Assembly (NCBI GenBank): GCA_010093605.1
Contig: MU004194.1
Coordinates: forward strand, 906,323-970,322
DNA: 64,000 nt
From: Lophium mytilinum
Lineage: Eukaryota
Direction: 5' to 3'
A program made the position numbers and the translations under genes. Each line of letters opens with the position of its first letter. The first letter of the stretch is position 1. Positions 42,484 through 58,593 of the stretch are shown piece by piece. Under the pieces are notes generated by a model that did no database searches, was not told the origin of the DNA, and saw only the letters and a list, made by a program, of their open reading frames with translations.

Positions 42484-45400
42484 ATGGAGCGAATTGCTAT
42501 AGCAGAGGTGGCACCCACCCTTCCCTCACCCGAGACAAAGGTCATCCACGCCGTAGTCACGCTTCTGTGGCCTTACTCTTCGTCGACAAAACAATGCGCA
42601 CTGCTACTGGCTGACCCGGACTTCCGCCTTCGCCGCCGACAAGGGCAGGTCAGAGTGCGCTTCTCAGGATCCAGTGCGACGGCTATTGCGCAGTCCGGGA
42701 TTGGGATTGGAGATGAAGTTACGCTGAGGCTACAGGGTGCACGGTTTATTGAAGATGTTGGAGACGTCAAGACGCCCGGGAAGAGTGTAGATTGGGAGCT
42801 GGGTTACAGCCGGAGGCTTGTGCTCGAGGTATATCAATGCGGAGACTTACAACGAAGGAGTCAGTGGCTGATCTTGAGGAATAGATTACCCAAGATGGCA
42901 AGGAGCTATCAAACATCGACATTGACGATCGAAACCCGTCGCCAGAACCATCGCTCCCGGACACAATAGTAGAAGCACGAAATATTCCCTCCATGATCAC
43001 ACCCGCCATCGATCGAATCAACACTCAGCACATCAGCTCTCAGATATCTCCAGATCAATGGTCCTCGCCTGTATTCCTCAAACGGACACGTTTATCCGAA
43101 GGATCTCTATTCGGGTCTGAACTGAACACCATGGATACTGCTGAGGATGGAGGCATTACAGGACACCGCCAAAAGAGAAGGAAGAGGAAATCATACAGAG
43201 ATTGGAGCGGCGTATGGACATACTCTGCGAGGACGCCTTCTCCTGAAAAGGAAGAGGCTACATCTGCAGAAGAAGAGGAATCAGAGTCAGCTGAGGAAGA
43301 CGTAGGAGTGACGCCCTCACGTTTCCCGCGTACCCCAATTTCCCCCCCCAAAGGAAAAGAGATTGTTTCAGTTGCAACCCTCCCTCTTGAACAGCCATCG
43401 CCCAGCGAAGTGGCCTCGTACGAGCCACAGCAGTTTGATCAACCTAACTTGGTTCTTCATGAGGTGGAAGAAGTGGTACAATCATCCCATATCTATGATA
43501 GTGGTGCGCCTTTCGTGCAGGAGGGTCTCAGCGATGAGGTGTTCGTTGCAGAGCAAACGGCGCACCATTTTCAGCGCTTTGGAAATGGCGAAACGTTCGT
43601 ACAGGACGATCTCATTGACGACGATGACTTTATCACGACTGAGGAAAGGTTTGATGTCCAAGAGCTGGATAACGACGACCTCTATAGCCAGCCAGAACCG
43701 TATAAGCCTCAGGAGGAGGTAATGTATGAAGGCGACGCGGAGCCGAACACTGAGGATGAAGCCGAACTTGTCCAGGAAGTTGATTCACAGGGCTCACAAA
43801 CTGGTGAACTGGAAATCGAAGAATTGGAGGACTTTCATGGTGACGACCAACACCAGTTTCCCGTAGCGGGCGAAACGTACTGGAGCGAGACAGAAGTAGC
43901 CTCCTCTGAGCTAGACGAAGAGCATGATATGCTCGACCAAGTCGATCAGGAGGACTACGATGAAGAAGAGCAAGAAGAACGGCAAGAAGAACGACAGGAA
44001 CATTATCCTACTGAACCGCCAGAAATTATGGTATTGGGCTCTACAGAAGAAGACAGTTCGGATGAAGACAGTTCGGACGAATCCCTCTCCGATGATGAAT
44101 CGGACGATGAAGAAGAGCCTCATCAGGAACTCCAGAATCGAGAGCGGTCAGGAACGCAAGAGGAACCAATAATTCTTGAAGAGGACTCAGAAGAAGCGAG
44201 CGATACTGAAGAATCGGAGCGTGATCAGGTTTTGAGGCGTCGAGACCGCTCCGGGACCCAGGAAGAACCAATTCAGCTTGGTAGAAGTGTAGCGGTGATG
44301 ATGCCTCCGCCAGATTTGCCGGTTCTTCGCACGAACTTCGCGTCCGCTACCACTTCGCAAGTCCAAACGCCTCTTGGAGATGCACCTACGACTCCGGTTC
44401 TCAAGCCATTGACACCATCTACTCTCCCGATGCCGTCTCCTTTCCCAGGGGAACGAGACGCAAGCTTTGCGTCCTATCTTGATCACCAGCAAGGAGGCTC
44501 TTCGGCTGGAAACGAGGCGAACTCAGAAGATCAGCGCAAAGAGCCTACCCTGGACCCGGATGAGGACGAAACTGACCCGAGCGACTTCTACCATTTGGCG
44601 GTACACAATACACATACTTCTAACTATAGCGACTTACGATTCTCGTTCGGATTTGACGGATCGGCCTCCACTCGTGAGAAGTCCCCGCCGGGGGAGCTTG
44701 CGACTATCTTGCCCGAAGAGGAAGACATAAACCACGTCATTAGTCCAACTATGGGTACTGTCGATAATGCAGGTGAAACGGAGCGACTCTCGCAGATCGA
44801 CGAGCCAGAAGAGGACCTTGTTGGTGAAACTCGCAGCATTGATGCAGATCTAGAAGTCATTGATCCCGCCGAAGGGGCGGACCAACTAGCTCAGGTCGAG
44901 GAGGCCGATGAAGAGACTCTGACCGAAAATCGCGACGACGATATAGACATGGAAAGCCTTGATACGAACGAGAAGGCAGACCAAATTCATGTCGATGAAA
45001 ACGACGAAGATCTTTCGGATGGATCCCACGACGACGACATGGGCGTCCAAGTTATTGGCCACTCCGAGGAGCAGGATGTCGTTTCCGAACAGCAGAGTGG
45101 CCTTTCCAACTCTGATGGAAGTGACGGAGCTCGTCCAGACGATACTTCCAACAGTGATATAGGCGTAGACACTATTGATCATTCCGACCTGGAGAGTAGC
45201 GATCCCAAGTCAGGCGAAAGGCGTGAGGGCTCTCGAGGCGACGATCACGATACGATTACTACGGGCGTAGCCATTTCTCATCAAATTCAAGCAACGCACT
45301 GGCCGCTCGTCGAGGCTGAACAGGCCATGTCTGAAGTCAATTCTTCACGAGAGGTATCCCCTGGTCCTCAAACAGAGCAGAACAGACCTTCCGTGTTCAT

Positions 45401-48400
45401 CGACATTTCGTCCGACGAAGAAGAGGAGGAGTTGGTGGAAGGAGAGGACGAGGGACGAGATGAAATTCACGAACTGCAACAAGAACGGCCTCAAGAACGT
45501 GCTGATCACTGGACTCAGTCTGACGCCCATGATAGCCAAAACCCAACCTCGGAAGATACTATTCAGACGAGTGAAGATCATGGACCTTCTCTTAGCTCTC
45601 CTCATATTACTGAGAAGCCTTATTCGACTAGCCCACCCAATCATCACGAACACGTCCAAAACGATGTGGTAATGATGGACGATCATCAGATAAAGACGTC
45701 AGATATTGATAGCGATAGCGATGGCGAAGAGCTCCCTGACTTCTTTGAGCTCCTGAGCCAGCCAAACCGTTTAGACAAAGACACGCAACAATCCAGCCCT
45801 CCTGATATTCCAGCTCAAGCTGAGGACAACGAGATTGATGGTACACAGGGTCTACCTGTCGCGCTTGAAGTGGAGAACTCTGCTTCTTACCAATCCATAC
45901 ATGAGACACCAGAGGATTACTCTTCTACGATACCCCCAACATCGCAATATGTAGCAGCTGAGCACAAGGAGAGACTTGCTCCTGGATCAGCTGAGATTGG
46001 AGTCCCGCCTTCGTCTAGGCTAACCGAAATCGTGGATCTTGGTGACGGAGAAAGTGACGAAGACGACGACAAAGATGAGGAGACGACCGCCTTCTCAACG
46101 GTTTTGAACGCCTCAAGAAGCGAGTACGACGGTCTTGACAATGTTCCTCAACCTCTTAGCGACGAAGTTAATGATAGCCAGACCGAACTCTTCATTAGTG
46201 CGCCACAATCTTTGATTGTCAAGCTGCGGCTACCGAAGCCCAGTTCAGAGCAAGTCGATGAGGATCCCAAGCTGGACCTGAGCGCGCCCGCAATGAACAC
46301 AAGATCCAAGAAGAATGCCTCGCCTGCTAAAGTTGATCCGCCTCATAGGAACCTGCGTTCCAGGCACCAAGATACGTCGCCCATAAAGAGCAAGAAAGAA
46401 GGTACCAAGGCAGCAAAAGTTGAGCAAGCTCCGAAAATAGAGCCTTCTCCCTTGCCTTCGACATCTCGCTCATCGTCTGTCAAATTCGATGAAAGCCTCT
46501 TCGAGCCTCTAGATTTTCCACTAGACGATATGGATACAGGATCGAAGAGAAAAATTTCGTTGTCTAGATTTCCCCCCGGCACCATCATCAAAGACTCTTT
46601 CGACGATAACTTACACTCTGAGGCATCAATATCCACTGTCCCCTTCTCGGATGACGCGCAGACGGTGACTATGGAGAACTACGATTATCGCTACGGTTTG
46701 GACGATCCTGAGCAACAGCATGTCTCAGAGCCACGGCAGGATCCTAGGGACATGTTACCGCCAGGTGAAGAAGTCCGTCCCCGGCAAGAATCCCATGACA
46801 TAGAGACACAGCGCTCGCCCAGCCCAACCATAGCCTCATCACCACCGGAAGCTCCCTGGGATAATGAAACCACTCCGGGCCAAGTCAGTTATCCGCGTCT
46901 TCCACTCGATAGGTCTAGTCCGCCTGCAACTCAGCCTGAAGCAGATCCGCAAGACATCACCATGCACAACTACTCTCTGGCCGACAGCAACCTTCCGATG
47001 ACACCAGATGCCAGCCAACACCCAGTGACATCGCAATCATTTTCTTTGGGCACGCATATCGATGAGACACTCCAACAAAATACGGACGAGCAGCGCTTCC
47101 AAGAGCCACAGCCTACTTTGGGTACTCACGTTTCAGAGACTTTGCCCGAAACATTGCCACTCTCCCCACAACTTACTCAAGAGACAACTGCAGCGTTTTC
47201 TTCTGCGCCCCCCGAGCGAGTTGAAATGCCTTCGGACTCCGTTCCCCGGTCCTCGGCGACAGGAAAGAAGCCAGTTCCAATTCATGGACAGGAATCTGCT
47301 AGTATAGCTGGGCAAAATCGTGGCCCTGTACACGACCCTTTAGCCAACCTAGACTCTACGCAGCAGAGACCTGTTGAATCACGTAGGCAAAGCAGGTACA
47401 GTCGCGACACTATATGGAACAACCCTCTAGCCAAATCGGAATTCCTGCAGGTAGACGAGATGGTAAATGGTTCAAACTACTCAGCTCCTCGCAAGGGACC
47501 CCGGACTTCCCTAAATACTGGAGACGGTACACCAGAACAACTCCAGAGTTCTTTGACACATTTAGGAGGTAAACCTGCACAACCTCGACATATAAAAAGG
47601 GCGCTCCCATCGCGTGCCAGTGTCGGCGGCACACCTGTTCCTGCGGTCTTGAGTGAGTGGTTTGCGCCACGTTCTAGCCTAGTTGCAAAGGAATCGTCTC
47701 CTGCCACTTCGACGACCAGTCAAGGGGAAGATGGCAGTAGAAGTGCGGTCTTGGAGGAAAAGACTGCACATCTACTTGCACCCACACCAACCGAGCAGGT
47801 CCAGCCTCGCCAAGCTGCGGAAACTCCAAGTCAAGGCTTCCGCACCAATTTGTCTTACTATACGCCCCTATCTAAACTTAACACCTACCTCAACATATCC
47901 TCGCAATCCCTAGACAACTCCCTCGATGTCCTCGTAATTGTTACGCGTGACGCATCACCGGCGGAGCGAGCCAAAAAAGGCCCACGAGATTTCAGCACCG
48001 TTTTTCACATCACTGACGCCTCTATCCATCCGAATGCCATACAGGTACAGATATTCCGTCCTTACCGCGCTGCTGTCCCTACCGCACAGGCGGGAGACGT
48101 GGTGCTCTTGCGCAACTTCGCAGTCAAGTCGCATAAGGGTAAAGAACAGCTACTAAGCTTGGAGGATAGTGCGTGGCGTGTGTGGCGTTTTGGAAAGCCT
48201 TTGTGGGGTATGAAGAAGGGGCAACATGGGGAGATAGAGGCGCGGGAGGAGTGTAGCGGACCGCCAGCTGAAGTGGGCGACGAGGAACGAGGACAGGTGG
48301 AGGTGTTTCGGACGTGGTGGCAGAGCGTAGCTGATATGAATGGGAACAGCATGGGGAACAATGAGGCCGGAGGAAGGCGCGGACATGCTCTGAGGAGCCA

Positions 48401-48407
48401 ACTCTAA
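42484..48407 (+). CDS. Large (~1950 aa) POT1/Cdc13-type OB-fold protein: N-terminal OB-like domain, long acidic disordered linker, C-terminal telomere-binding-type OB; intron 42829-42884
   Basis: N-term VVTLLWPYS..LLADPDFRLRR..GQVRVRF..IGIGDEV; C-term DVLVIVT..P..KGPRDF..FHITD..VQIFRP..P.AQAGDVVLLRNF resembles POT1 OB1; exon 2 from 42885 is in frame with ORF 42993-48407. Confidence 0.8.
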
Positions 48408-48793
48408 GAACATGGTTGATAAGCCTTTATGATGGAGGCGTGGATCACTAAAGCATTATGAAGTAGATTTCGGCAGAAATGTAACATGAATATATTGACA
48501 GTATTACGATGTTTTACTACACGCAAGTTTTGATCTATAGACTTTGATAGCATGGACTCACTGAATAAGATCGTCCGGCAATAAACGGTGAATGATTTGG
48601 GGGCCACAAGAACAGCAATTGAAATCACGTTGGTTGGAGAGAAGGTTTAGAAAAAAATTCATGAAATGTGGACTTAACTAGAAATCATACAGCAGCTGCC
48701 ACCATGGCTATTGGGAAAGCACCATGCGAACAAGTTCACCTAGTCAGCAGTGGGTTCCAGCTACCACGCGAGGGAGTGGAGAAGGGACTCGGC

Positions 48794-49768
48794 CTAATTG
48801 AATGCCCACGAAGCCAATGGCTCCGGCTTGTGGCTCTCGACCCACTCCTTGGAGTACTTGGTGACGAGGCCTGGCAAGTAAAACGAGGATTCTCGCTCGG
48901 CCGAGTCTCGCTTCAGAGTTTTCTTGGTTACCTGGGTTAGCTCTTGGCTGTAAAAGCTCTTGAGCGGAGAGCTCCTCAGGGTATGATCCGGCACCCTCAG
49001 AAGGCGAGCCAAGCAGTGGATGACCAGTCCGAGCTGATAAACATCGGACCGCCTATCGTACTTAGGGCACTCCGGGGGCGAGAAGGCTCTGGCCTGGCGA
49101 CTCACCTGTTCGTTCTTGGCGAGTCCGGTTGTGATATCGCTCATGGAGATACCGCAACCAAAGTCACCGAGAACGCTTCGGGGGTAGAGACCACCGGTGT
49201 CTGTCAAGAAGATGTTTCCAGGTTTGATGTCTCGGTGGAGGATTGAGTCCCAGTCGGGATCAACTTTGTCATCCTCCTTATGAATCCCGTAAACACAGAA
49301 TCGCAGTGCCTTCGCAACATCCAGGAGCACACGCCAGAGGAAGCCTTCAGGCAGGTATACCTGTTTGTTCTCGTACCGATCGATAAGAGTGTCGAGGGCT
49401 CCAAGCTCGTAGAACTCCATGTACATTCGAGGGGTATCACGAGGATCTAGCTCGAAGGCCTTCAGTTGAGCTATGTTGGGATGGCCTCGAAGTTGGCGGA
49501 GGTAGGCAACCTCGCGCTTTGCGTGCAGCTCCCTAACATCCCGTGACGTAAAGCGCTTTTCGATGTATAGCTTGCCGGAGCTCTTGGACTTGACGATGAA
49601 GATCCCGCCATTGAGCGCACCGACGTCGCCGCCTGCTTGCTTCGTTAAGGCTTTTACAAGCTTGAAGTGGGATTCTTCCTTGGCGTGGCTGGGACCCGGG
49701 GCTCGTTCTTTAAGGGAGTGGCCGCGGTGGCCGCGGTGGCCGCCGAAATCGAATCGCGGGAGAGGCAT
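48794..49768 (-). CDS. Divergent NIMA/NEK-like Ser/Thr protein kinase, tandem copy 1 (intronless)
   Basis: IEKR Lys, alphaC REV, HRDIKPGNIFL, LGDFG, FSPPE, SDVYQLG; first ATG at 49768 (MPLPRF). Confidence 0.88.
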   Translation of the reverse strand: MPLPRFDFGGHRGHRGHSLKERAPGPSHAKEESHFKLVKALTKQAGGDVGALNGGIFIVKSKSSGKLYIEKRFTSRDVRELHAKREVAYLRQLRGHPNIAQLKAFELDPRDTPRMYMEFYELGALDTLIDRYENKQVYLPEGFLWRVLLDVAKALRFCVYGIHKEDDKVDPDWDSILHRDIKPGNIFLTDTGGLYPRSVLGDFGCGISMSDITTGLAKNEQVSRQARAFSPPECPKYDRRSDVYQLGLVIHCLARLLRVPDHTLRSSPLKSFYSQELTQVTKKTLKRDSAERESSFYLPGLVTKYSKEWVESHKPEPLASWAFN

Positions 49769-50259
49769 GATTGTTTGGTTCTGAAGCTTTCCTTGAGGTT
49801 TTTGAGACAAGTGGAATCGAAGCGCTGGAACTTTGTGATGTTCTGAAGTTACGATCCAGTTGAATGCTAAAGCTGAAGCTGATGGGGGATTAGAAGGAGA
49901 AGCTGTCAATTTTATATAATGATAACCCAAGTCTAAACAATGTATTGGGTAGCTTTTATTCTTTTACTGACTAGTTTTGTGAGAAAACATACCACGATAA
50001 TCGCGGAACAATGTAACATCGCTCACAATACAGCGCTCACAATGCCACTAGTGTAGTATGAGGCCATAGGTGGAGCACGAGAACAACCGGGAACTGAATG
50101 TAGCAGCATAAGTGTAGGATTACAACCCTTTAAGTAGATGCTTGATATATGCCTAGAAAGGCCTTATAACAATAGCCAACGGATAGAGTTCGCTCAGGAG
50201 GGTGAAGCATGTGCTGTTTTCTCCCGAAGCCTCGACTTGATGTCGTCTAAGCTTTCCGT

Positions 50260-50519
50260 CACAGGGGTCGACAGGAGAGCTGTCACCCCCCCAAATTACC
50301 AGGAGAAATGTTCAAAATACCCAAATTGTTAAATTTAAGTTAAGGGATACCAAAACAAGGTCGCTTTATACAGCTCTGCGTATTTAGATTTTAGAAATTC
50401 TTTCTTACTGCCGAGTTCTTAATATTAGAAGTCTCGTCGCTACCCCATTTCAAAGGATCTGATTGGTTGATCGGCCCGCGGAGGAGGGGGTGGTGACAGT
50501 TCTCCTGTCGACCCCTGTG
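50260..50519. mobile_element. Non-autonomous DNA transposon (MITE), 260 bp, 33-bp TIRs
   Basis: Left 50260-50292 CACAGGGGTCGACAGGAGAGCTGTCACCCCCCC vs reverse complement of 50487-50519 CACAGGGGTCGACAGGAGAACTGTCACCACCCC (31/33 identical); flanked by CCGT at 50256-50259 and 50520-50523; AT-rich non-coding interior. Confidence 0.85.
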
Positions 50520-50612
50520 CCGTTATGGCTCTGATACGTGGATCCAAGAAGCCATTATTGAGACTGACGGACCCCTGGAGATACAGCTTGTCCGTTTAGA
50601 AACCACCTGATA

Positions 50613-51563
50613 CTATTCCCGAAATGCCCATGATTTCAGTGGTCTCGGAGCATTTCGCGCGCAGAATGCTTGGAAATGTTGATCAACTATACCTGGCAAA
50701 TGTAGGGTAGATGGTCGTGAACTTGGATCCGGAAGTAACATTTGTAAAAGGATACCATCGAGGGGGTCACTATAGGGGTTCCCCATTTCCCAGGTCCTGG
50801 AAATTGAGTCATGGTCTGGGACATCAAGATTTTGAATCATGCAATGAATCGTTAAACCCAACTGGAATACATCGCTCCTCCTAGAGTAGGCTGGGGCCTC
50901 GGGTGGTGAAAATTCAGGAGCCTGTCTACTGGTCAGTGCCGATGCAGTACCATTAACGATGTCTATGTCGGAAACTGAGCATCCGAAATCGCCAAGGACA
51001 ATGCGAGGGTAGAGAGCGCGAGGATCGCTTGGGCTGGCGAGGAATACGTTCCCAGGCTTAATATCGCGATGAATGATGGCATTCCAGTTCTCAGGGACCA
51101 TTCCGCCACTCCCAAAGACATAGCCATGCACGCAAAAGCAGAGAGCTTTGCTGAGTTCCAGTAGCGTGTGCCCAACAAAGCCGTGGGGAAGTGTTTCGGA
51201 TCTCCTCCAATAACGCGCTATTAGAGTGTCCAAAGCACCAAGATCATAGAACTCGAGGTAGAGCGCCGGGTGTCTCTGGCGGGGCAGATAACCGAATATG
51301 TGGCAGATGTTAAAGTGGCCTCGTAATTGCTTGAGAGCCTTCATTTCGCGCTCCATATGGCGGGTTTCCATATCCTGCCTCGTGACTCGTTTTTCAACCC
51401 GGAGTTTCCCATGCCGAATAGTTCTCACCAGAAAAATGCCGGCATTGCAAGCTCCACCGTCTCCATCTCCTGGTTGCTTGAGTGTCTTGATAACCACATA
51501 CGGAGACGGTGGCGTGGGCAGCTGGCCTCGACGCGAACCAGAAAATCTAGGTGGTTGTGACAT
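50613..51563 (-). CDS. Divergent NIMA/NEK-like Ser/Thr protein kinase, tandem copy 2 (intronless)
   Basis: VEKR, REM, HRDIKPGNVFL, LGDFG, FSPPE, SDVFQLG. Confidence 0.88.
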   Translation of the reverse strand: MSQPPRFSGSRRGQLPTPPSPYVVIKTLKQPGDGDGGACNAGIFLVRTIRHGKLRVEKRVTRQDMETRHMEREMKALKQLRGHFNICHIFGYLPRQRHPALYLEFYDLGALDTLIARYWRRSETLPHGFVGHTLLELSKALCFCVHGYVFGSGGMVPENWNAIIHRDIKPGNVFLASPSDPRALYPRIVLGDFGCSVSDIDIVNGTASALTSRQAPEFSPPEAPAYSRRSDVFQLGLTIHCMIQNLDVPDHDSISRTWEMGNPYSDPLDGILLQMLLPDPSSRPSTLHLPGIVDQHFQAFCARNAPRPLKSWAFRE

Positions 51564-52766
51564 GGTGGTGTGGAAATGTTAAGAATAGGAAACCAAGATA
51601 GAAGTTCTGTGGATAGCGTGGAAGTAAAGAGACTATCGAACTTGAAGAGAAATTGAATATGTATATTGTAGGAATTTTATAGAGCGTGCAAAAGCCAGTG
51701 AGTGAAGGTATTTAGTTGGTATATGCCAGGTGTCTATGATGGCTGCATACCAGCCACCGTGCCGACAGCGCACGCAAATAACGATGTCGAGTCCAGTCCA
51801 TGATGTCGCAGCCAACTACTAATACTGGCTCAATTCCGTAACACGTGTCCCTTCTCAAAGGAGCTTTGTGTGTTGCGCGAGGTGGGCGACCGCGCTGTTA
51901 TGCAGGTGCGTTGAGACCCGTATACCTACCTTTTGGTGCATATTATATCCGCCATGATGAGTTTATGGTACCCTTAGGACGACGCTGTAGAGGTAGCAAC
52001 TGTCTTCCATGTTCGAGGAGCGAGATTTGGTTGGATTGAATGGATTCATCTACGATAGCGTTCAGATGGTATAAATGACTGTCCGATCCCGGGCCGGGTG
52101 GGTAAAGACTGACGTACTTGCTCAGTCATTTGACTGATGGTACAATTGCGTGTCGGTGTAGCTCAGGTGCCATTTCGTGATAGGGCTGACGAATATGTTC
52201 GTCGTAAAAATGGCATACGGCCCGATGCGCTGCCTTGATTTGGACGAGGCAGAGGTCAGTAGAGTGGCTGCGATTCACATCAAGACAGGCCTGACTACGC
52301 AAGGCGAATGCATAGCAGCTGGGTAATAGGGTGGGTAGCTATCAACGGTATCAAGTTAGTATCTCGATACATGGAACTTGATAGTCTTGGGTACATTACT
52401 GACGTTGTTTGTGAACAAGGGATCTGCAGTTCGGCTGCTTCTACAGAGCTGTTCTACTATGATTCTCTATATCAGTTAGCAAGCTACATGACGTGAAATG
52501 CAATGCTATTAATCTCATTGTGCATCGACAAGCTGTTTTCGATCGACTGGCTCGTTGAGGCGTCGAGTAGGGTTGCGGACTTGAAGGGGATCAGCACAGC
52601 TTCATGATAGTAGGGTTGTCTTATGCTGACACAATGCGCCGAAACCACTCGAGCTTTCAATCTATCGAGTCTCGGAGAGCCTAGCATGAGAGGTTTCGGA
52701 TACTGTTAACAGATCGAAGACGGAAGAGATCGCTGATGTGAAAAGTTGAGCTATAAAAAATTGCAG

Positions 52767-53696
52767 CTAGCGGAAGGCCCATGGCCTCAATGGCTCCTGG
52801 CGGTGTCTCAAAAGCATCGCTTCGGTGCGCCGAGCTACCTTGCCGGGCAGATCCTGAGAAGATGGTCGAAACTTCCGGTCTCGGCGGAGCATTTCGGCAA
52901 CAACGCCTTGCAAGGACTCGGGGTATGAGGTTCCAATCGCCTGGTGGCTTGCAACCAAGTGATAATCTGGAACAGCGATTAGTCGGGCCATACAGTGTAA
53001 GACCAATCCTACTTGGAACACGTCACTGCGCGTGGAGTACGACGGTGCCTCTGGCGGTGCGAATGCTGGAGCCTGCCTGCTCACAAGTGGCGATGCGATA
53101 CCCTCCTTTATGTGTCGTTCCGAGACTGAGCATCCGAAGTCCCCAAGAACGACACGAGGATACAGACCGTCGCCTCGGGTCGAGAGAAAGACATTTCCTG
53201 GTTTTATGTCTCGGTGGACGATAGTGTTCCAGACAACAGGTGCCGCTCCCCCAGGCAGATATCCGTGGACACAAAAGCATAGTGCTTTACTAAGTTCTCC
53301 GAGCGTATGGTAAAGAAAACCTTGAGGCAGCAGCATGGATCTACGCTTATACCGCTCAATAAGTGTATCCAGAGCCCCGAGTTCGTAGTGTTCAAGATAG
53401 ATTCTGGGAATGCATGCTGGTTGGAGCTCCCAATGGATGATCTGGCAGAGATTTTTCTGGCCCCTGAATTGTTTAAGTGCGTGGACTTCACGGCCTGCGT
53501 GGCCGTCGTGAACATCCCTCTGCTTAAGTCGCTTTTCAACGTATATCCGGCCAGATTGGTTTGACTGCACAAGATAAATGCCAGCGTTGCAGGCTCCGTT
53601 GTCGCCACCTTCTATGCTGAGTGCCTTCAGGACCCTGTAGCGATGCTGTTCTTGTGGGTTGACTGGGCAACGCGGTATTCCGAACCAGGACGGCAT
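52767..53696 (-). CDS. Divergent NIMA/NEK-like Ser/Thr protein kinase, tandem copy 3 (intronless)
   Basis: VEKR, REV, HRDIKPGNVFL, LGDFG, FAPPE, SDVFQVG. Confidence 0.88.
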   Translation of the reverse strand: MPSWFGIPRCPVNPQEQHRYRVLKALSIEGGDNGACNAGIYLVQSNQSGRIYVEKRLKQRDVHDGHAGREVHALKQFRGQKNLCQIIHWELQPACIPRIYLEHYELGALDTLIERYKRRSMLLPQGFLYHTLGELSKALCFCVHGYLPGGAAPVVWNTIVHRDIKPGNVFLSTRGDGLYPRVVLGDFGCSVSERHIKEGIASPLVSRQAPAFAPPEAPSYSTRSDVFQVGLVLHCMARLIAVPDYHLVASHQAIGTSYPESLQGVVAEMLRRDRKFRPSSQDLPGKVARRTEAMLLRHRQEPLRPWAFR

Positions 53697-54979
53697 TGTG
53701 AACTTGGTAATGGATGTGGTGTGTAAGATTGTGTGTCCAAGAGTACGATATGGAGGTGTGTAGGGTTGTTCGGTGCTGTGAGAATATACAGAACGAAAAT
53801 ATGAAGGGTATTTTGTATGCAGCGTTGAACGAGTCCCAAGTGAAAGTCAGAGCGTGCGAGCAGTGACTGCATCTAACCTGGAGATATGCGGACATGTGAA
53901 TGTTAAAAGAGAACTAGAATTGCAAGTGATAGTGTCTGGAGTGAAAGTATACATTAAGTGATCCTCTTTGCAAGTTGTAATCATAGCAGCAACGACAGTG
54001 AATGACAACCACGCCAAAGAGGCCGACTGTTAAGTAATGATACCGTCCATCAGCTCAGCGGACAGTATATTGAAGGACAAGGCTGCGTCAAATTAAGACA
54101 CATACAAGACGAAAACAATGAAAATCTTAGATAAAAGGCAGGGTATGTGTGTGTTGGAGGGCCATATCTGAAAGGCTCTTTTTCTGAGGGAGACAAATTG
54201 AAAAAACGCGGATGTCAGACAAACACATGTAGTATGGATTCTGCGCCGCTTTTTATACAAACTGTGTTCTGAATATGTTGAATAATTGCGTTCAGCATGT
54301 ACCGTATTATGCTGGCGGAAACTTTGCTGATGGATGCTGGTTGGCTGTATCAGCTGGAAACGGTTCAGGGCAGATTGCTGTCTGAACTGTATTGTGGCAA
54401 TCCGGGGCATGATTCGATGTGTCAGCTCTATCCTCTTTGCGGATATATGCGTGCCGGCTTGTTTCTGATGATGATGCTGGCAGCATAGGTGGCACTCAAA
54501 TTGATAATTGACGTATAGCCACATAGTAGGCAGGGCTAGGCCGCACAGATACACTTTCCGGTAGGGGACAAAGATATAGCTAGACATGTGAACAGAGCTG
54601 GCTACGAGGCAGATCAAACGTAAGCAATACAGAGGCGATACTGCTCAGATTGCGTTGCATACTGTTTGTTTCACTCGCATAGAAAGGATTAACATCGTTC
54701 ATGCCACACCCACAGAACAAATGCAAGTGAGGTGTAGGAGCTTGTACTTCCCTACATGATCTTCTGGAACTTACTAACAAGCTTGTCTGTAAGGCTCTTC
54801 TTCTCGACTACTATCCTACACCAATGGTGATGCTCTGTTGGTAGGGGAGTAACCTGGAGTTGATGCCAATGACGATGTCGGAGGCTGAGAATTGCTTGGC
54901 ACACCAGATCGCGGTTTGGCTACCCCCGCAAGGGGACGACTATTCCATCCTGGACTACATACCCTCCACCACCGTCAAT

Positions 54980-55975
<996 letters not shown>

Positions 55976-56772: not shown

Positions 56773-58593
56773 ATGAGCTCAGCCCACAGCTGCATCGACG
56801 ACGGCGCCGCCTTTACCGGGCGTCTTCGACCCGGACACCGTCCCGCGTCACTATACCAAGTTGCGATCAGGAATGCGCACGACCTCAATAATGCCGAACC
56901 AAGCCCAATTACCAAAGTCGACAGATGGGTTCACGCAATCGACGATGGGCCTCTATCTCCGGTAGACAACCGTCCCGGCCGCTCGAAGACTACTCCGAGA
57001 TTTGTCAACAGGAACCTGGGATCGGAGGCAGGTACTGATCTCCTGAGCTATATCGACGACGGCGGAGAGATTATGGCGCAAGACCAGAAGGTACATGCTG
57101 CCCAAGCCACCACTCAAAGACGATACTCCGCTCCACCTCTTGTACGACCCAGTCTCACGGCTCTCCGAATCCCCAAAGTCCAGCCTACTACACCCCAAAT
57201 AAGCAAGGACCAATCGAAATGGACGAGACCCAGAAATGTCTCTCAGGTGCACTATCCTGAAGTTGAGAAGGCAGCGCTGCAAGATATCCGTAGCACAATC
57301 AGGAACATCGAATCGCTCGCCGCCACAGTGGTAGCCGCAAGAGCGCCGAAGAGCATCCGCTCCATACGTACCATCACTCCCCCCAGCTTACCTACCTTCA
57401 TCATCAAGGCCAGTAACCGCGACGCGTCTGTAGTTGTCGACGGGCGCGGTGCGCCGATACGGGAACGATCCTCATCTCGAAGGAGTTCAGGCAGTGATCG
57501 AATGCCGAATGATGAAGCTATCGAGCTACCTGAGTATCCCGTATTCGCCAACAAAGTTCGCCCTGTGCCTAAAGCGGCTAAAATCAAGTCTAGGAAGGAG
57601 CACCAGGAGGGCAATGACTTCGGCTTGGGTGATTGGGATGCCGAGCCGAAGAATGAAGGATACCATGGTGGTAACGATACTGGTCAACGCAACCAGAAGG
57701 AGAACAAAAAAGGGAAGAAGCAGCAGGGGCAAGCAAACCTGAAGCAACAGGCAAGCAAGAAGCCCGCGTCGTCTTCGTGGGCTGAGAAGAAGGACAACGA
57801 CGGAGATGCTTGGGGTGGCAATTTCGAAAACGATGACGATGGTCTTGTCATTTCACCGGATATTTCGCCCCCTCCTTCTGATGCTGATGTGTGGATGAGT
57901 GGCGGTCTGGGAATACCGTCCCCACCGGCATCGGTCACAGGTAAGGAGTCCGCAAAAAAGAAACAGAGCGAGAGCCAGAAAGGCAAAGGAAAGGGTACAC
58001 TGAGTGCGGGAGCAAAGAAAAGCACAGGAGGTGGCAAGAAGGAAAAGAAGGGCAAACAGGGCAAGCAATCGAACCAGAATAGGCTGGACACCATTCTTGA
58101 AGCCGTCGAGAATGATGCCAAGGCCAAAACTGCCGATGACAGTACCCTTTGGGCTAACGCTGGAGCTGCAAGCATGCAGGCTGGCGATACATATATGCCA
58201 TGGCCTACTATTTCTCAGCAACAAACCGGGATGGCTATGCAAATGGCACCCCCGGATGTCCCTCCACAGCCATTCGCATACGGATACGGTTTTCCTGTCC
58301 CTGTTGGAGCGCTGCCGACGGGTATTCCTACTCCAGACGCTAACGCCTCTATCCCAAACCCTGATGCCGAGGATCAGAATCCCAGCCAGTCCAACTACAA
58401 GGCTCCTACTGTCGAGACGGTGTCTTCTAGTCCATCCAAAGGCAAGACAACACCCGTACAAGGTAGCCAAGGTTCGCCACGAACGCCAGGCGGTAGAAGA
58501 AAGAATGGATACGATGACGATGAAGGGTATACGAATGCTGTCTGGGGCGGCATTCCCGTCAGAGTTGCAGAATGGAGGCTCAGCAAGCCGTGA
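56773..58593 (+). CDS. Intronless 606-aa low-complexity/disordered hypothetical protein
   Basis: Long ATG-initiated ORF with Lys/Gln-rich and Pro-rich segments; no recognisable domain. Confidence 0.65.
   Translation: MSSAHSCIDDGAAFTGRLRPGHRPASLYQVAIRNAHDLNNAEPSPITKVDRWVHAIDDGPLSPVDNRPGRSKTTPRFVNRNLGSEAGTDLLSYIDDGGEIMAQDQKVHAAQATTQRRYSAPPLVRPSLTALRIPKVQPTTPQISKDQSKWTRPRNVSQVHYPEVEKAALQDIRSTIRNIESLAATVVAARAPKSIRSIRTITPPSLPTFIIKASNRDASVVVDGRGAPIRERSSSRRSSGSDRMPNDEAIELPEYPVFANKVRPVPKAAKIKSRKEHQEGNDFGLGDWDAEPKNEGYHGGNDTGQRNQKENKKGKKQQGQANLKQQASKKPASSSWAEKKDNDGDAWGGNFENDDDGLVISPDISPPPSDADVWMSGGLGIPSPPASVTGKESAKKKQSESQKGKGKGTLSAGAKKSTGGGKKEKKGKQGKQSNQNRLDTILEAVENDAKAKTADDSTLWANAGAASMQAGDTYMPWPTISQQQTGMAMQMAPPDVPPQPFAYGYGFPVPVGALPTGIPTPDANASIPNPDAEDQNPSQSNYKAPTVETVSSSPSKGKTTPVQGSQGSPRTPGGRRKNGYDDDEGYTNAVWGGIPVRVAEWRLSKP

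Follow-up and report, generated by a model that had tools for sequence, protein, structure and literature searches.

In the stretch of Lophium mytilinum DNA that we have analysed (64,000 nucleotides of contig MU004194.1, hereafter called the window), three protein kinase genes follow one another on the minus strand: K1 (positions 48794-49768), which encodes a 324-amino-acid (aa), kinase-domain-only, NEK-related kinase, K2 (50613-51563), which encodes a 316-aa paralogue that is sister to K3, and K3 (52767-53696), which encodes a 309-aa paralogue that has been modelled as a complete two-lobed kinase. K1-K3 are old genes maintained by purifying selection and, judged by profile and tree, they belong to a large clade of NEK/NIMA-related kinases in the Pezizomycotina, in which they may represent, as we propose, a subfamily apparently not described before, with all three paralogues being functional. 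The preliminary description of this DNA, made from its letters alone, had taken the trio for a fungal kinase-only subfamily related to NIMA, uncharacterised so far, that had expanded locally long ago and been retained; profile searches, trees and substitution patterns bear this out and point to retention by selection.

Each of the three genes is a single exon, with an open frame that runs unbroken from ATG to TAG, and all three share one orientation, as first described. The Pfam Pkinase profile matches all of them above its cut-off (53-62 bits vs 31.7). The kinases are clearly paralogous yet strongly diverged, an early observation that also holds: their pairwise identities are 48, 49 and 54% at the aa level and 50, 54 and 59% at the nucleotide (nt) level, identity at the third codon position is 29-38%, and the proportion of synonymous differences (pS) is saturated, at 0.78-0.89, versus a proportion of nonsynonymous differences (pN) of 0.29-0.38. 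It is the combination of saturated synonymous sites, lower pN and intact frames that marks the trio as old and under purifying selection. The signature of repeat-induced point mutation (RIP) is absent from K1-K3, whose RIP indices resemble the window average, and in a neutral control, where 25% of the sites were randomly substituted, the frame survived in only 2-3 of 8000 trials for each gene. The lack of introns, which had been singled out against the background of an intron-rich genome, is real but unremarkable here, since the six other NEK-like kinases of the genome and the adjoining open reading frame (ORF) of 1804 codons are single open frames too. In its public gene model (P0005), K1 is cut down to 211 aa and lacks both ends; K1 is, with 72% identity over the kinase domain, the orthologue of a “kinase-like protein” of Mytilinidion resinicola (P0004).

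Stop-codon read-through and A-to-I editing were considered as well and have been set aside, there being no internal stop and, by eye, no shared coding past the stops; K1-K3 and two related loci (L045 and L048) end in TAG, and three others (L046, L047 and L049) end in TGA. Papers are cited here and below by PMC number, for their accessible parts; in that of a review of read-through and editing (PMC11156358), the Dothideomycetes are not mentioned.

The kinship of the trio with the NEK kinases is seen in profile searches. Against the structures of the Protein Data Bank (PDB), the family profile scores 159 bits with NEK2, 143 with NEK7 and 140 with NEK1, while the best non-NEK structure scores 112.6 bits, and NEK2 is also the best match of a single-sequence search; the kinase domain is therefore nearer to those of NEKs than to those of any other family, which is the definition of NEK/NIMA membership given in PMC8999480. 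The insert between helix αE and the catalytic loop (αE-β6) has a family median of 21 residues, compared with 28 in the NIMA of this genome and approximately 6 in a protist NEK2. No match of K1-K3 to the FunK1 profile Pkinase_fungal (PF17667) was obtained at E<=0.001. Searches of the trio's own genome with K3 and two distant relatives have returned only K1-K3 as close matches, the sole members of the clade in this genome, the next best having an E value of about 1e-14 for K3. The NIMA gene proper is located elsewhere (G000:C4:1582413), contains introns and encodes a GTPFYMSPE motif and a long tail, and the six further single-frame NEK-like kinases form a separate sister group. Within this six-member group, we have observed a second tandem pair of single-frame genes (L004 and L030, at G000:C4:1617138-1619517), with deviant HFD/DFS and HCD motifs.

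The order of the duplications has been examined in a quick tree of 114 rows and in careful trees, under two models, of 42 rows drawn from it. K1 groups with the protein of M. resinicola (support 100/100), K2 groups with K3 (100/98), and these four form a clade (100/97-98) whose sister group consists mainly of Pleosporales. The approximately unbiased test rejects a grouping of K1-K3 to the exclusion of Mytilinidion (p-AU 1.8e-5), so the first duplication took place before the Mytilinidion lineage split off; only a K1-type protein has been found for M. resinicola. Two local tandem duplications are shown by this branching pattern: K1 separated first from the ancestor of K2 and K3, which then separated from each other. 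K2 is the fastest-evolving copy, with an end branch of 0.56-0.62 vs 0.39-0.40 for K3. More broadly, all 35 fungal NEK-like rows share a single long branch, from which NIMA and NEK2 are separate (100/99).

The sequence motifs of the trio have been compared in an alignment of 101 members of kinase-only length, hand-picked from approximately 220 hits, K1-K3 included. As had been reported, all three retain the catalytic lysine, the αC glutamate and the HRD and DFG motifs, and the motifs GDxGA[CL]N[AG]GI, [IV]EKR, LGALDTLI, SRQAxxFxPPE and PLxxWAF are found in each; the catalytic-loop Asn, the APE Glu, the αF Asp and the αH-αI Arg are retained in addition to the β3 Lys, the αC Glu, the HRD Asp and DFG. 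None of the losses that define a pseudokinase (of the β3 Lys, the HRD Asp or the DFG Asp) is seen in K1-K3. Across the alignment, K55, E70, H161, N168 and D186 are invariant (101/101), the catalytic aspartate D163 occurs in 100/101 members, and the lysine two positions after HRD occurs in 79/101, all three of the trio among them.

The shared motifs had been described as unusual features of the trio, a view that stands for two of them, at the level of a small subclade, and falls for the rest, which extend across the clade. The GxGxxG loop is missing in K1-K3 and a longer G-x-x-N-x-G-I loop is found instead, which is family-wide (G34 in 97/101 members, N37 in 88/101 and G39 in 87/101); counted back from the conserved β2 Ile, the loop Asn occupies the position of the loop-tip aromatic residue of GxGxxG loops, in a loop that is a few residues longer than in the PKA-type register. 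The [IV]EKR motif is present in 63/101 members and a C-terminal LxxW[A/V/C/S/T] motif in 46/101. On the other hand, the exact SRQAxxFxPPE motif is confined to 6/101 members, i.e. the trio and one protein each from Mytilinidion, Zopfia and Clohesyomyces, with a wider set of 176 sequences yielding the same six bearers, and LGALDTLI also occurs in 6/101. SRQA, with Ala in place of the P+1 Thr, is thus the mark of a small subclade in the aligned sequences. The Gly-Thr pair of the P+1 loop is replaced by Gln-Ala in K1-K3; among 91 family rows, the P+1 Thr position (APE-5) is unusually free, being occupied by Thr in 42, by Asp in 24 and by Ala in 12. The residue at the β4 position is Leu, Ile and Ile in K1, K2 and K3, respectively, and Tyr in the NIMA of this genome and in 23/101 rows.

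AlphaFold2, supplied with the 101-row alignment, models K3 as a complete kinase (predicted local distance difference test, pLDDT, 91.9; predicted TM-score, pTM, 0.91). In a fold search with this model, WEE1 ranks first (Z 26.8, root-mean-square deviation 2.3 over 244 residues), within 1 Z of CDK2 and with many other structures at Z 25-27, a tie that speaks of the kinase fold and says nothing on function. The aligned range reaches residue 308 in the CDK2 superpositions, suggesting that the PLxxWAF tail of the model packs back onto the domain as a structural cap. An autoinhibitory β4 Tyr (NEK7 Y97, NEK2 Y70) occurs in 8/11 human NEKs, and the Y97A change makes NEK7 approximately 5-fold more active, with loss of cell-cycle control (PMC2807034); the trio has neither this NEK7-type inhibitory Tyr nor the GT motif of the P+1 loop. 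A hydrogen bond from the GT Thr to the catalytic Asp is described as a requirement of efficient Ser/Thr kinase catalysis, with Haspin as an exception that is active without a GT motif (both in PMC3513839), and in NEK10 the choice of phospho-acceptor is set by the P+1 loop (PMC6570481). With the αC and HRD arginines, to which an activation-loop phosphate binds, being kept, the Ser of SRQA is a candidate activation-loop phosphosite. On these comparisons, K1-K3 are probably active as Ser/Thr kinases, their substrate site being narrow and non-standard and their basal restraint low, and an altered substrate recognition, as a result of the lost P+1 Thr, is plausible.

Our search for further members of the family has found it to be widespread. 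With a profile of the trio, 169 clusters were retrieved at E<=1e-30 (clusters at 50% identity; 1.84 billion representatives searched), each family search scoring 8000 candidates. The named members are mostly Dothideomycetes (Mytilinidion, Zopfia, Clohesyomyces, Lophiotrema, Bipolaris, Parastagonospora, Elasticomyces, Patellaria and others), with further members in the lichen-forming or related Pseudocyphellaria, Lobaria, Candelaria, Peltula and Geoglossum, and also in Arachnomyces. No protein of Neurospora, Fusarium, Aspergillus or Magnaporthe is among the named matches of the 8000 candidates scored, the named ones being a minority of the rows. Family members are 30-45% identical and their copy number varies from one to at least three per species: Lophiotrema has three, on records of different length, and Setomelanomma, Kalmusia, Massariosphaeria, Karstenula, Melanomma and Stemphylium have two each. 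In metagenomes, the best five of 80 loci are fungal relatives, with one copy at each; three of the five are single-exon, two near-identical ones have an intron at the DFG codons, and none of the genes that flank the trio in the window is shared by the five. Of the two near-identical contigs (L046 and L047), one carries an in-frame TAA (L047:10256-10258), while L046 is intact. The ESM Atlas has returned merely generic ascomycete kinase clusters and unrelated bacterial ones.

A sister branch from Xylariales and Leotiomycetes (P0046, P0250, P0307-P0327) has an N-terminal WW-like module before its G-x-x-N-x-G kinase, and this module could serve as a substrate-targeting domain. A search from this WW-bearing clade has returned Xylariales and Leotiomycetes proteins, and none from model species. 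In a set of 71 longer relatives, a WW domain in one protein is the only added Pfam domain, apart from a sub-threshold coronavirus hit.

No description of the family was found in the literature searched, which for the most part did not extend to subscription papers and to supplementary kinome tables, where members may possibly be listed as “unclassified”; the locus tags of six relatives gave 0 literature hits. In the accessible parts of four kinome papers (PMC3591445, PMC3245316, PMC2838846 and PMC6001611), NIMA is the sole NEK or NEKs are unmentioned, and that of the NIMA-family review (PMC8999480) covers only Aspergillus, yeast and mammalian members, while public annotation automatically labels the relatives as “kinase-like protein” or “NIMA-related kinase”. 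We have found no already characterised subfamily with these motifs in which the trio could be placed, and the subfamily is apparently undescribed. The family seems to be unstudied because no member has turned up in the usual model fungi. Many Pezizomycotina carry extra, fast-evolving NEK-related kinases, in addition to the single NEK, NIMA, that is reported in kinome studies of model fungi, and the present genome has NIMA, the trio and six more in the sister group. The preliminary description had presented the trio as a candidate for an undescribed system; an apparently undescribed kinase subfamily is what survives of this idea, and it is the enzymology of this subfamily that is interesting, the three genes themselves having come from old tandem duplication of an ordinary kind rather than making up a new system. 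The family can be regarded as a natural experiment, in which two kinase elements regarded as near-essential, the GxGxxG loop and the P+1 threonine, have been changed with the catalytic residues kept; the proteins are small, soluble and well modelled, so this enzymology is directly testable.

The transcription of the trio has been examined in RNA of the same species (run X3), which was recognised by 26/30 contigs being at least 99% alike and by the GT..AG introns of the flanking gene being skipped, while the DNA runs X1 and X2 keep them. Each of the three ORFs is covered in part by X3 contigs (bins 49208-49608, 50812-51212 and 52817-53217), which could be of either strand and may include DNA carry-over; expression had been raised as a check against decaying duplicates, and these contigs speak for the genes. 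Contig depth, which cannot rank genes, is 0-4 over the kinase bins vs approximately 127 and 960 over flanking genes. In RNA of a related organism (run X4), the K1 signal seems to stem from a different kinase that matches over 35 nt; neither the uncovered parts of K1 and K3 nor the absence of K2 and K3 cover in X4 is evidence either way.

The spacer between K3 and K2 gives rise to a spliced, apparently non-coding RNA (52020..52749, minus strand) with three GT..AG introns (52580-52630, 52339-52403 and 52050-52117), all of which are skipped by one 546-nt X3 contig and not by the DNA runs X1 and X2. The contig starts 18 nt past the stop of K3; after splicing, its longest ATG ORF is 50 aa, and it is single copy in the genome. 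Rfam gave 0 matches in 48400-55000. The spacer RNA is either the 3' untranslated region (UTR) of K3, a long leader of K2 that contains upstream ORFs (uORFs), or a separate RNA. By analogy with Neurospora, where 3'-UTR introns and uORFs trigger nonsense-mediated decay (NMD; PMC7746235, citing Zhang and Sachs 2015), a K3 3' UTR of this kind would invite NMD, and a K2 leader would carry several uORFs.

Upstream of the genes, TATA box-like sites are located 150 nt before the ATG of K1 (49912..49918, minus strand; at a background of 0.28 per kb, weak alone) and 118 nt before the ATG of K2 (51675..51681, minus strand), while K3 has merely a degenerate CATACAAA at -123. The three upstream regions have no 7-mer in common and share 6-mers at chance level, no homology was found among the spacers, and a bacterial promoter scan was at chance level and irrelevant. 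Between K2 and K1, outside the kinase unit, lies a 260-bp non-autonomous DNA transposon, a miniature inverted-repeat transposable element (MITE; 50260..50519, no strand), with terminal inverted repeats that start with CACAG/CATAG and a 4-bp target duplication, CCGT. Six copies of this MITE were found in the genome, four of them with a perfect 4-bp target duplication; its termini and duplication length are reminiscent of the CMC/Chapaev superfamily, to which it may belong.

On the basis of these findings, we suggest a tentative explanation of the trio. Since K1-K3 have no regulatory domain, they may be gated mainly by expression, through their own TATA-type promoters, with phosphorylation of the SRQA Ser possibly priming them; the spliced spacer RNA would dampen K3 via NMD or K2 via uORFs. 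Each kinase would be tuned to its own targets, and the three need not act together. A stage-specific developmental role, which we favour with somewhat less than even confidence, is suggested by the descent of these proteins from kinases of cell division and by the parallels of PUK1, a filamentous-fungus-specific kinase that is perithecium-specific (PMC4817773), and of the Plasmodium kinases Nek-2 and Nek-4, which serve sexual development (PMC2742851, PMC13376596), analogies and nothing closer. The stage would most likely be fruiting-body or spore formation, with NIMA-type control of nuclear division and septa being re-used. That K1-K3 are expression-gated, stand-alone, sub-specialised regulators of one particular stage carries a marginally lower confidence.

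Several points weigh against this explanation. Its weakest step is the biological setting, where it draws on ancestry and analogy. Neurospora, Fusarium, Aspergillus and Magnaporthe, from which no protein is among the named matches, do fruit, and should they truly lack the family, sex would not in general depend on it; a copy number from one to at least three fits accessory roles equally well. The substitution of Thr by Ala in Bub1 strongly cut its activity (PMC3513839), and the SRQA Ser is displaced by one residue from the register in which the phosphosite usually lies. A single contig represents the spacer RNA, and it shows no join to K3 or K2. The ancestry itself is qualified by the trees, in which NIMA groups with NEK2-type proteins, and in which a clade of NIMA and the family is not rejected (p-AU 0.26 and 0.34, with two non-NEK sequences only as outgroups), so that descent of the family from fungal NIMA is plausible.

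TATA-type promoters and a single-exon structure are typical of inducible genes; the former at K1 and K2, and the latter in all three, would also suit condition-induced signalling kinases with the same enzymology, which would respond, during vegetative growth, to cues from nutrients, stress or the substrate, with diversified inputs or targets. The lack of a 7-mer common to the three upstream regions, and of 6-mers above chance, argues against such an arrangement, which we consider rather unlikely, even though lineage-restricted unclassified kinases of Fusarium oxysporum were heat-induced (PMC6001611) and, within the Dothideomycetes, saprobes are richer in kinases than pathogens are (PMC7082219). 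It is also unlikely, and to a greater extent, that the trio are weak or pseudo-catalytic scaffolds or decoys, which would bind ATP and partners, as the kinase-only NEK7 can, with marginal phosphotransfer: the loss of GxGxxG and of the P+1 Thr in all three, the requirement for the bond that this Thr makes with the catalytic Asp, and the low Pkinase scores are what would be expected of such proteins, but the class-wide conservation of the Lys, Glu, His, Asn and DFG Asp, of the catalytic Asp and, to a lesser degree, of the HRD+2 Lys is expected of catalysis, and Haspin shows that activity without GT is attainable. The most far-reaching alternative, that the Asn-tipped loop and the Asp or Ala at the P+1 Thr position amount to a new nucleotide-binding mode and to a change of specificity, possibly to a dual or Tyr type as in WEE1, and that K1-K3 are a coupled unit in which a spliced K3 read-through RNA would time K2, is in our judgement very improbable.

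The preliminary description had further proposed that the three kinases act as a module, perhaps in defence or non-self recognition; such a module could, for example, relay NOD-like receptor (NLR) or HET cell death. The fast, birth-and-death-like evolution of the family (in its identities and its copy numbers per species), the tandem, co-oriented layout, the RNA contig cover through the K3-K2 spacer and the richness of the genome in HET domains (at least 152 matches) would fit a joint role of this kind. No NLR, HET, ankyrin or NACHT domain was found in the 71 longer relatives, no search having been aimed at proteins of more than 880 aa, the window contains none of the 150 HET matches listed, and the 49 window ORFs scanned have no NLR or HET domains, their families being housekeeping and metabolic. 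Multi-copy status is common in the family, the five related loci are single-copy, the Lophiotrema copies lie on separate records, and no promoter 7-mer is shared. Neither the module nor the defence role has been borne out, and we consider a module for defence distinctly unlikely. The notion that K1-K3 are decaying duplicates without function is hardly credible: it could draw on the in-frame TAA of one distant metagenome member (L047) and on the MITE inside the cluster, but saturated pS against much lower pN, which is the comparison that had been suggested as a check for decay, intact frames, the absence of RIP, the failing neutral control and the RNA contigs all speak against it; decay is refuted for the long term, which would leave room only for very recent relaxation.

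The cluster is located mid-contig (G000:C14, approximately 955-960 kb), between the ORF with a POT1 domain and a NUDIX_2 gene, with poly(A) polymerase, exportin-T and glycogen synthase as further neighbours. The former ORF (42993-48407) encodes 1804 aa, is acidic and mostly of low complexity, and has a C-terminal POT1/CDC13 OB domain; RNA shows a 58-nt GT..AG splice (46124-46181) that would shift its frame, and, to judge by loose DNA matches at 48068-48280, there is another copy of the OB part at a different site. Another ORF (56773-58593) encodes a basic, low-complexity protein of 606 aa with no Pfam match.

Of the known systems, NIMA/KIN3/Fin1 and human NEK2 are like the trio in being its best profile match, in the αD-αE pattern and in HRDxKPxN, the long αE insert being common with fungal NIMA. 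The trio is just 26-29% identical to them, with a rebuilt Gly loop and without GT and the β4 Tyr; the C-terminal coiled-coil/PEST tail of NIMA is absent, K1-K3 ending approximately 30 residues past the αI Arg, as the early remark on the missing regulatory tail had it, and the NIMA orthologue is another gene of the genome. The kinase-only NEK6 and NEK7 share with the trio a catalytic domain of approximately 300 aa with short ends, and NEK7 is the second-best profile match, a likeness of size and profile rank; the position of NEK7 Tyr97 is Leu or Ile in the trio, and no sign of a NEK9-like partner was seen. WEE1 and MYT1 resemble K1-K3 in the lack of the P+1 Thr, the first rank of WEE1 in the fold search being the tie described above. 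These two kinases carry Asp at that position, as do 24/91 family rows, but the trio has Ala, has no regulatory N-terminal region, and does not find WEE1 or MYT1 among its 60 best profile matches. Compared by description only, several of the Aspergillus nidulans kinases FfkA-K carry ankyrin repeats, and Fusarium graminearum PUK1 (Neurospora crassa STK-21) needs UAG editing in its kinase domain, while K1-K3 have no internal stop; what these kinases have in common with the family of the trio, according to the accessible parts of PMC3591445 and PMC4817773, is an occurrence in filamentous ascomycetes only, with patchy gain and loss.

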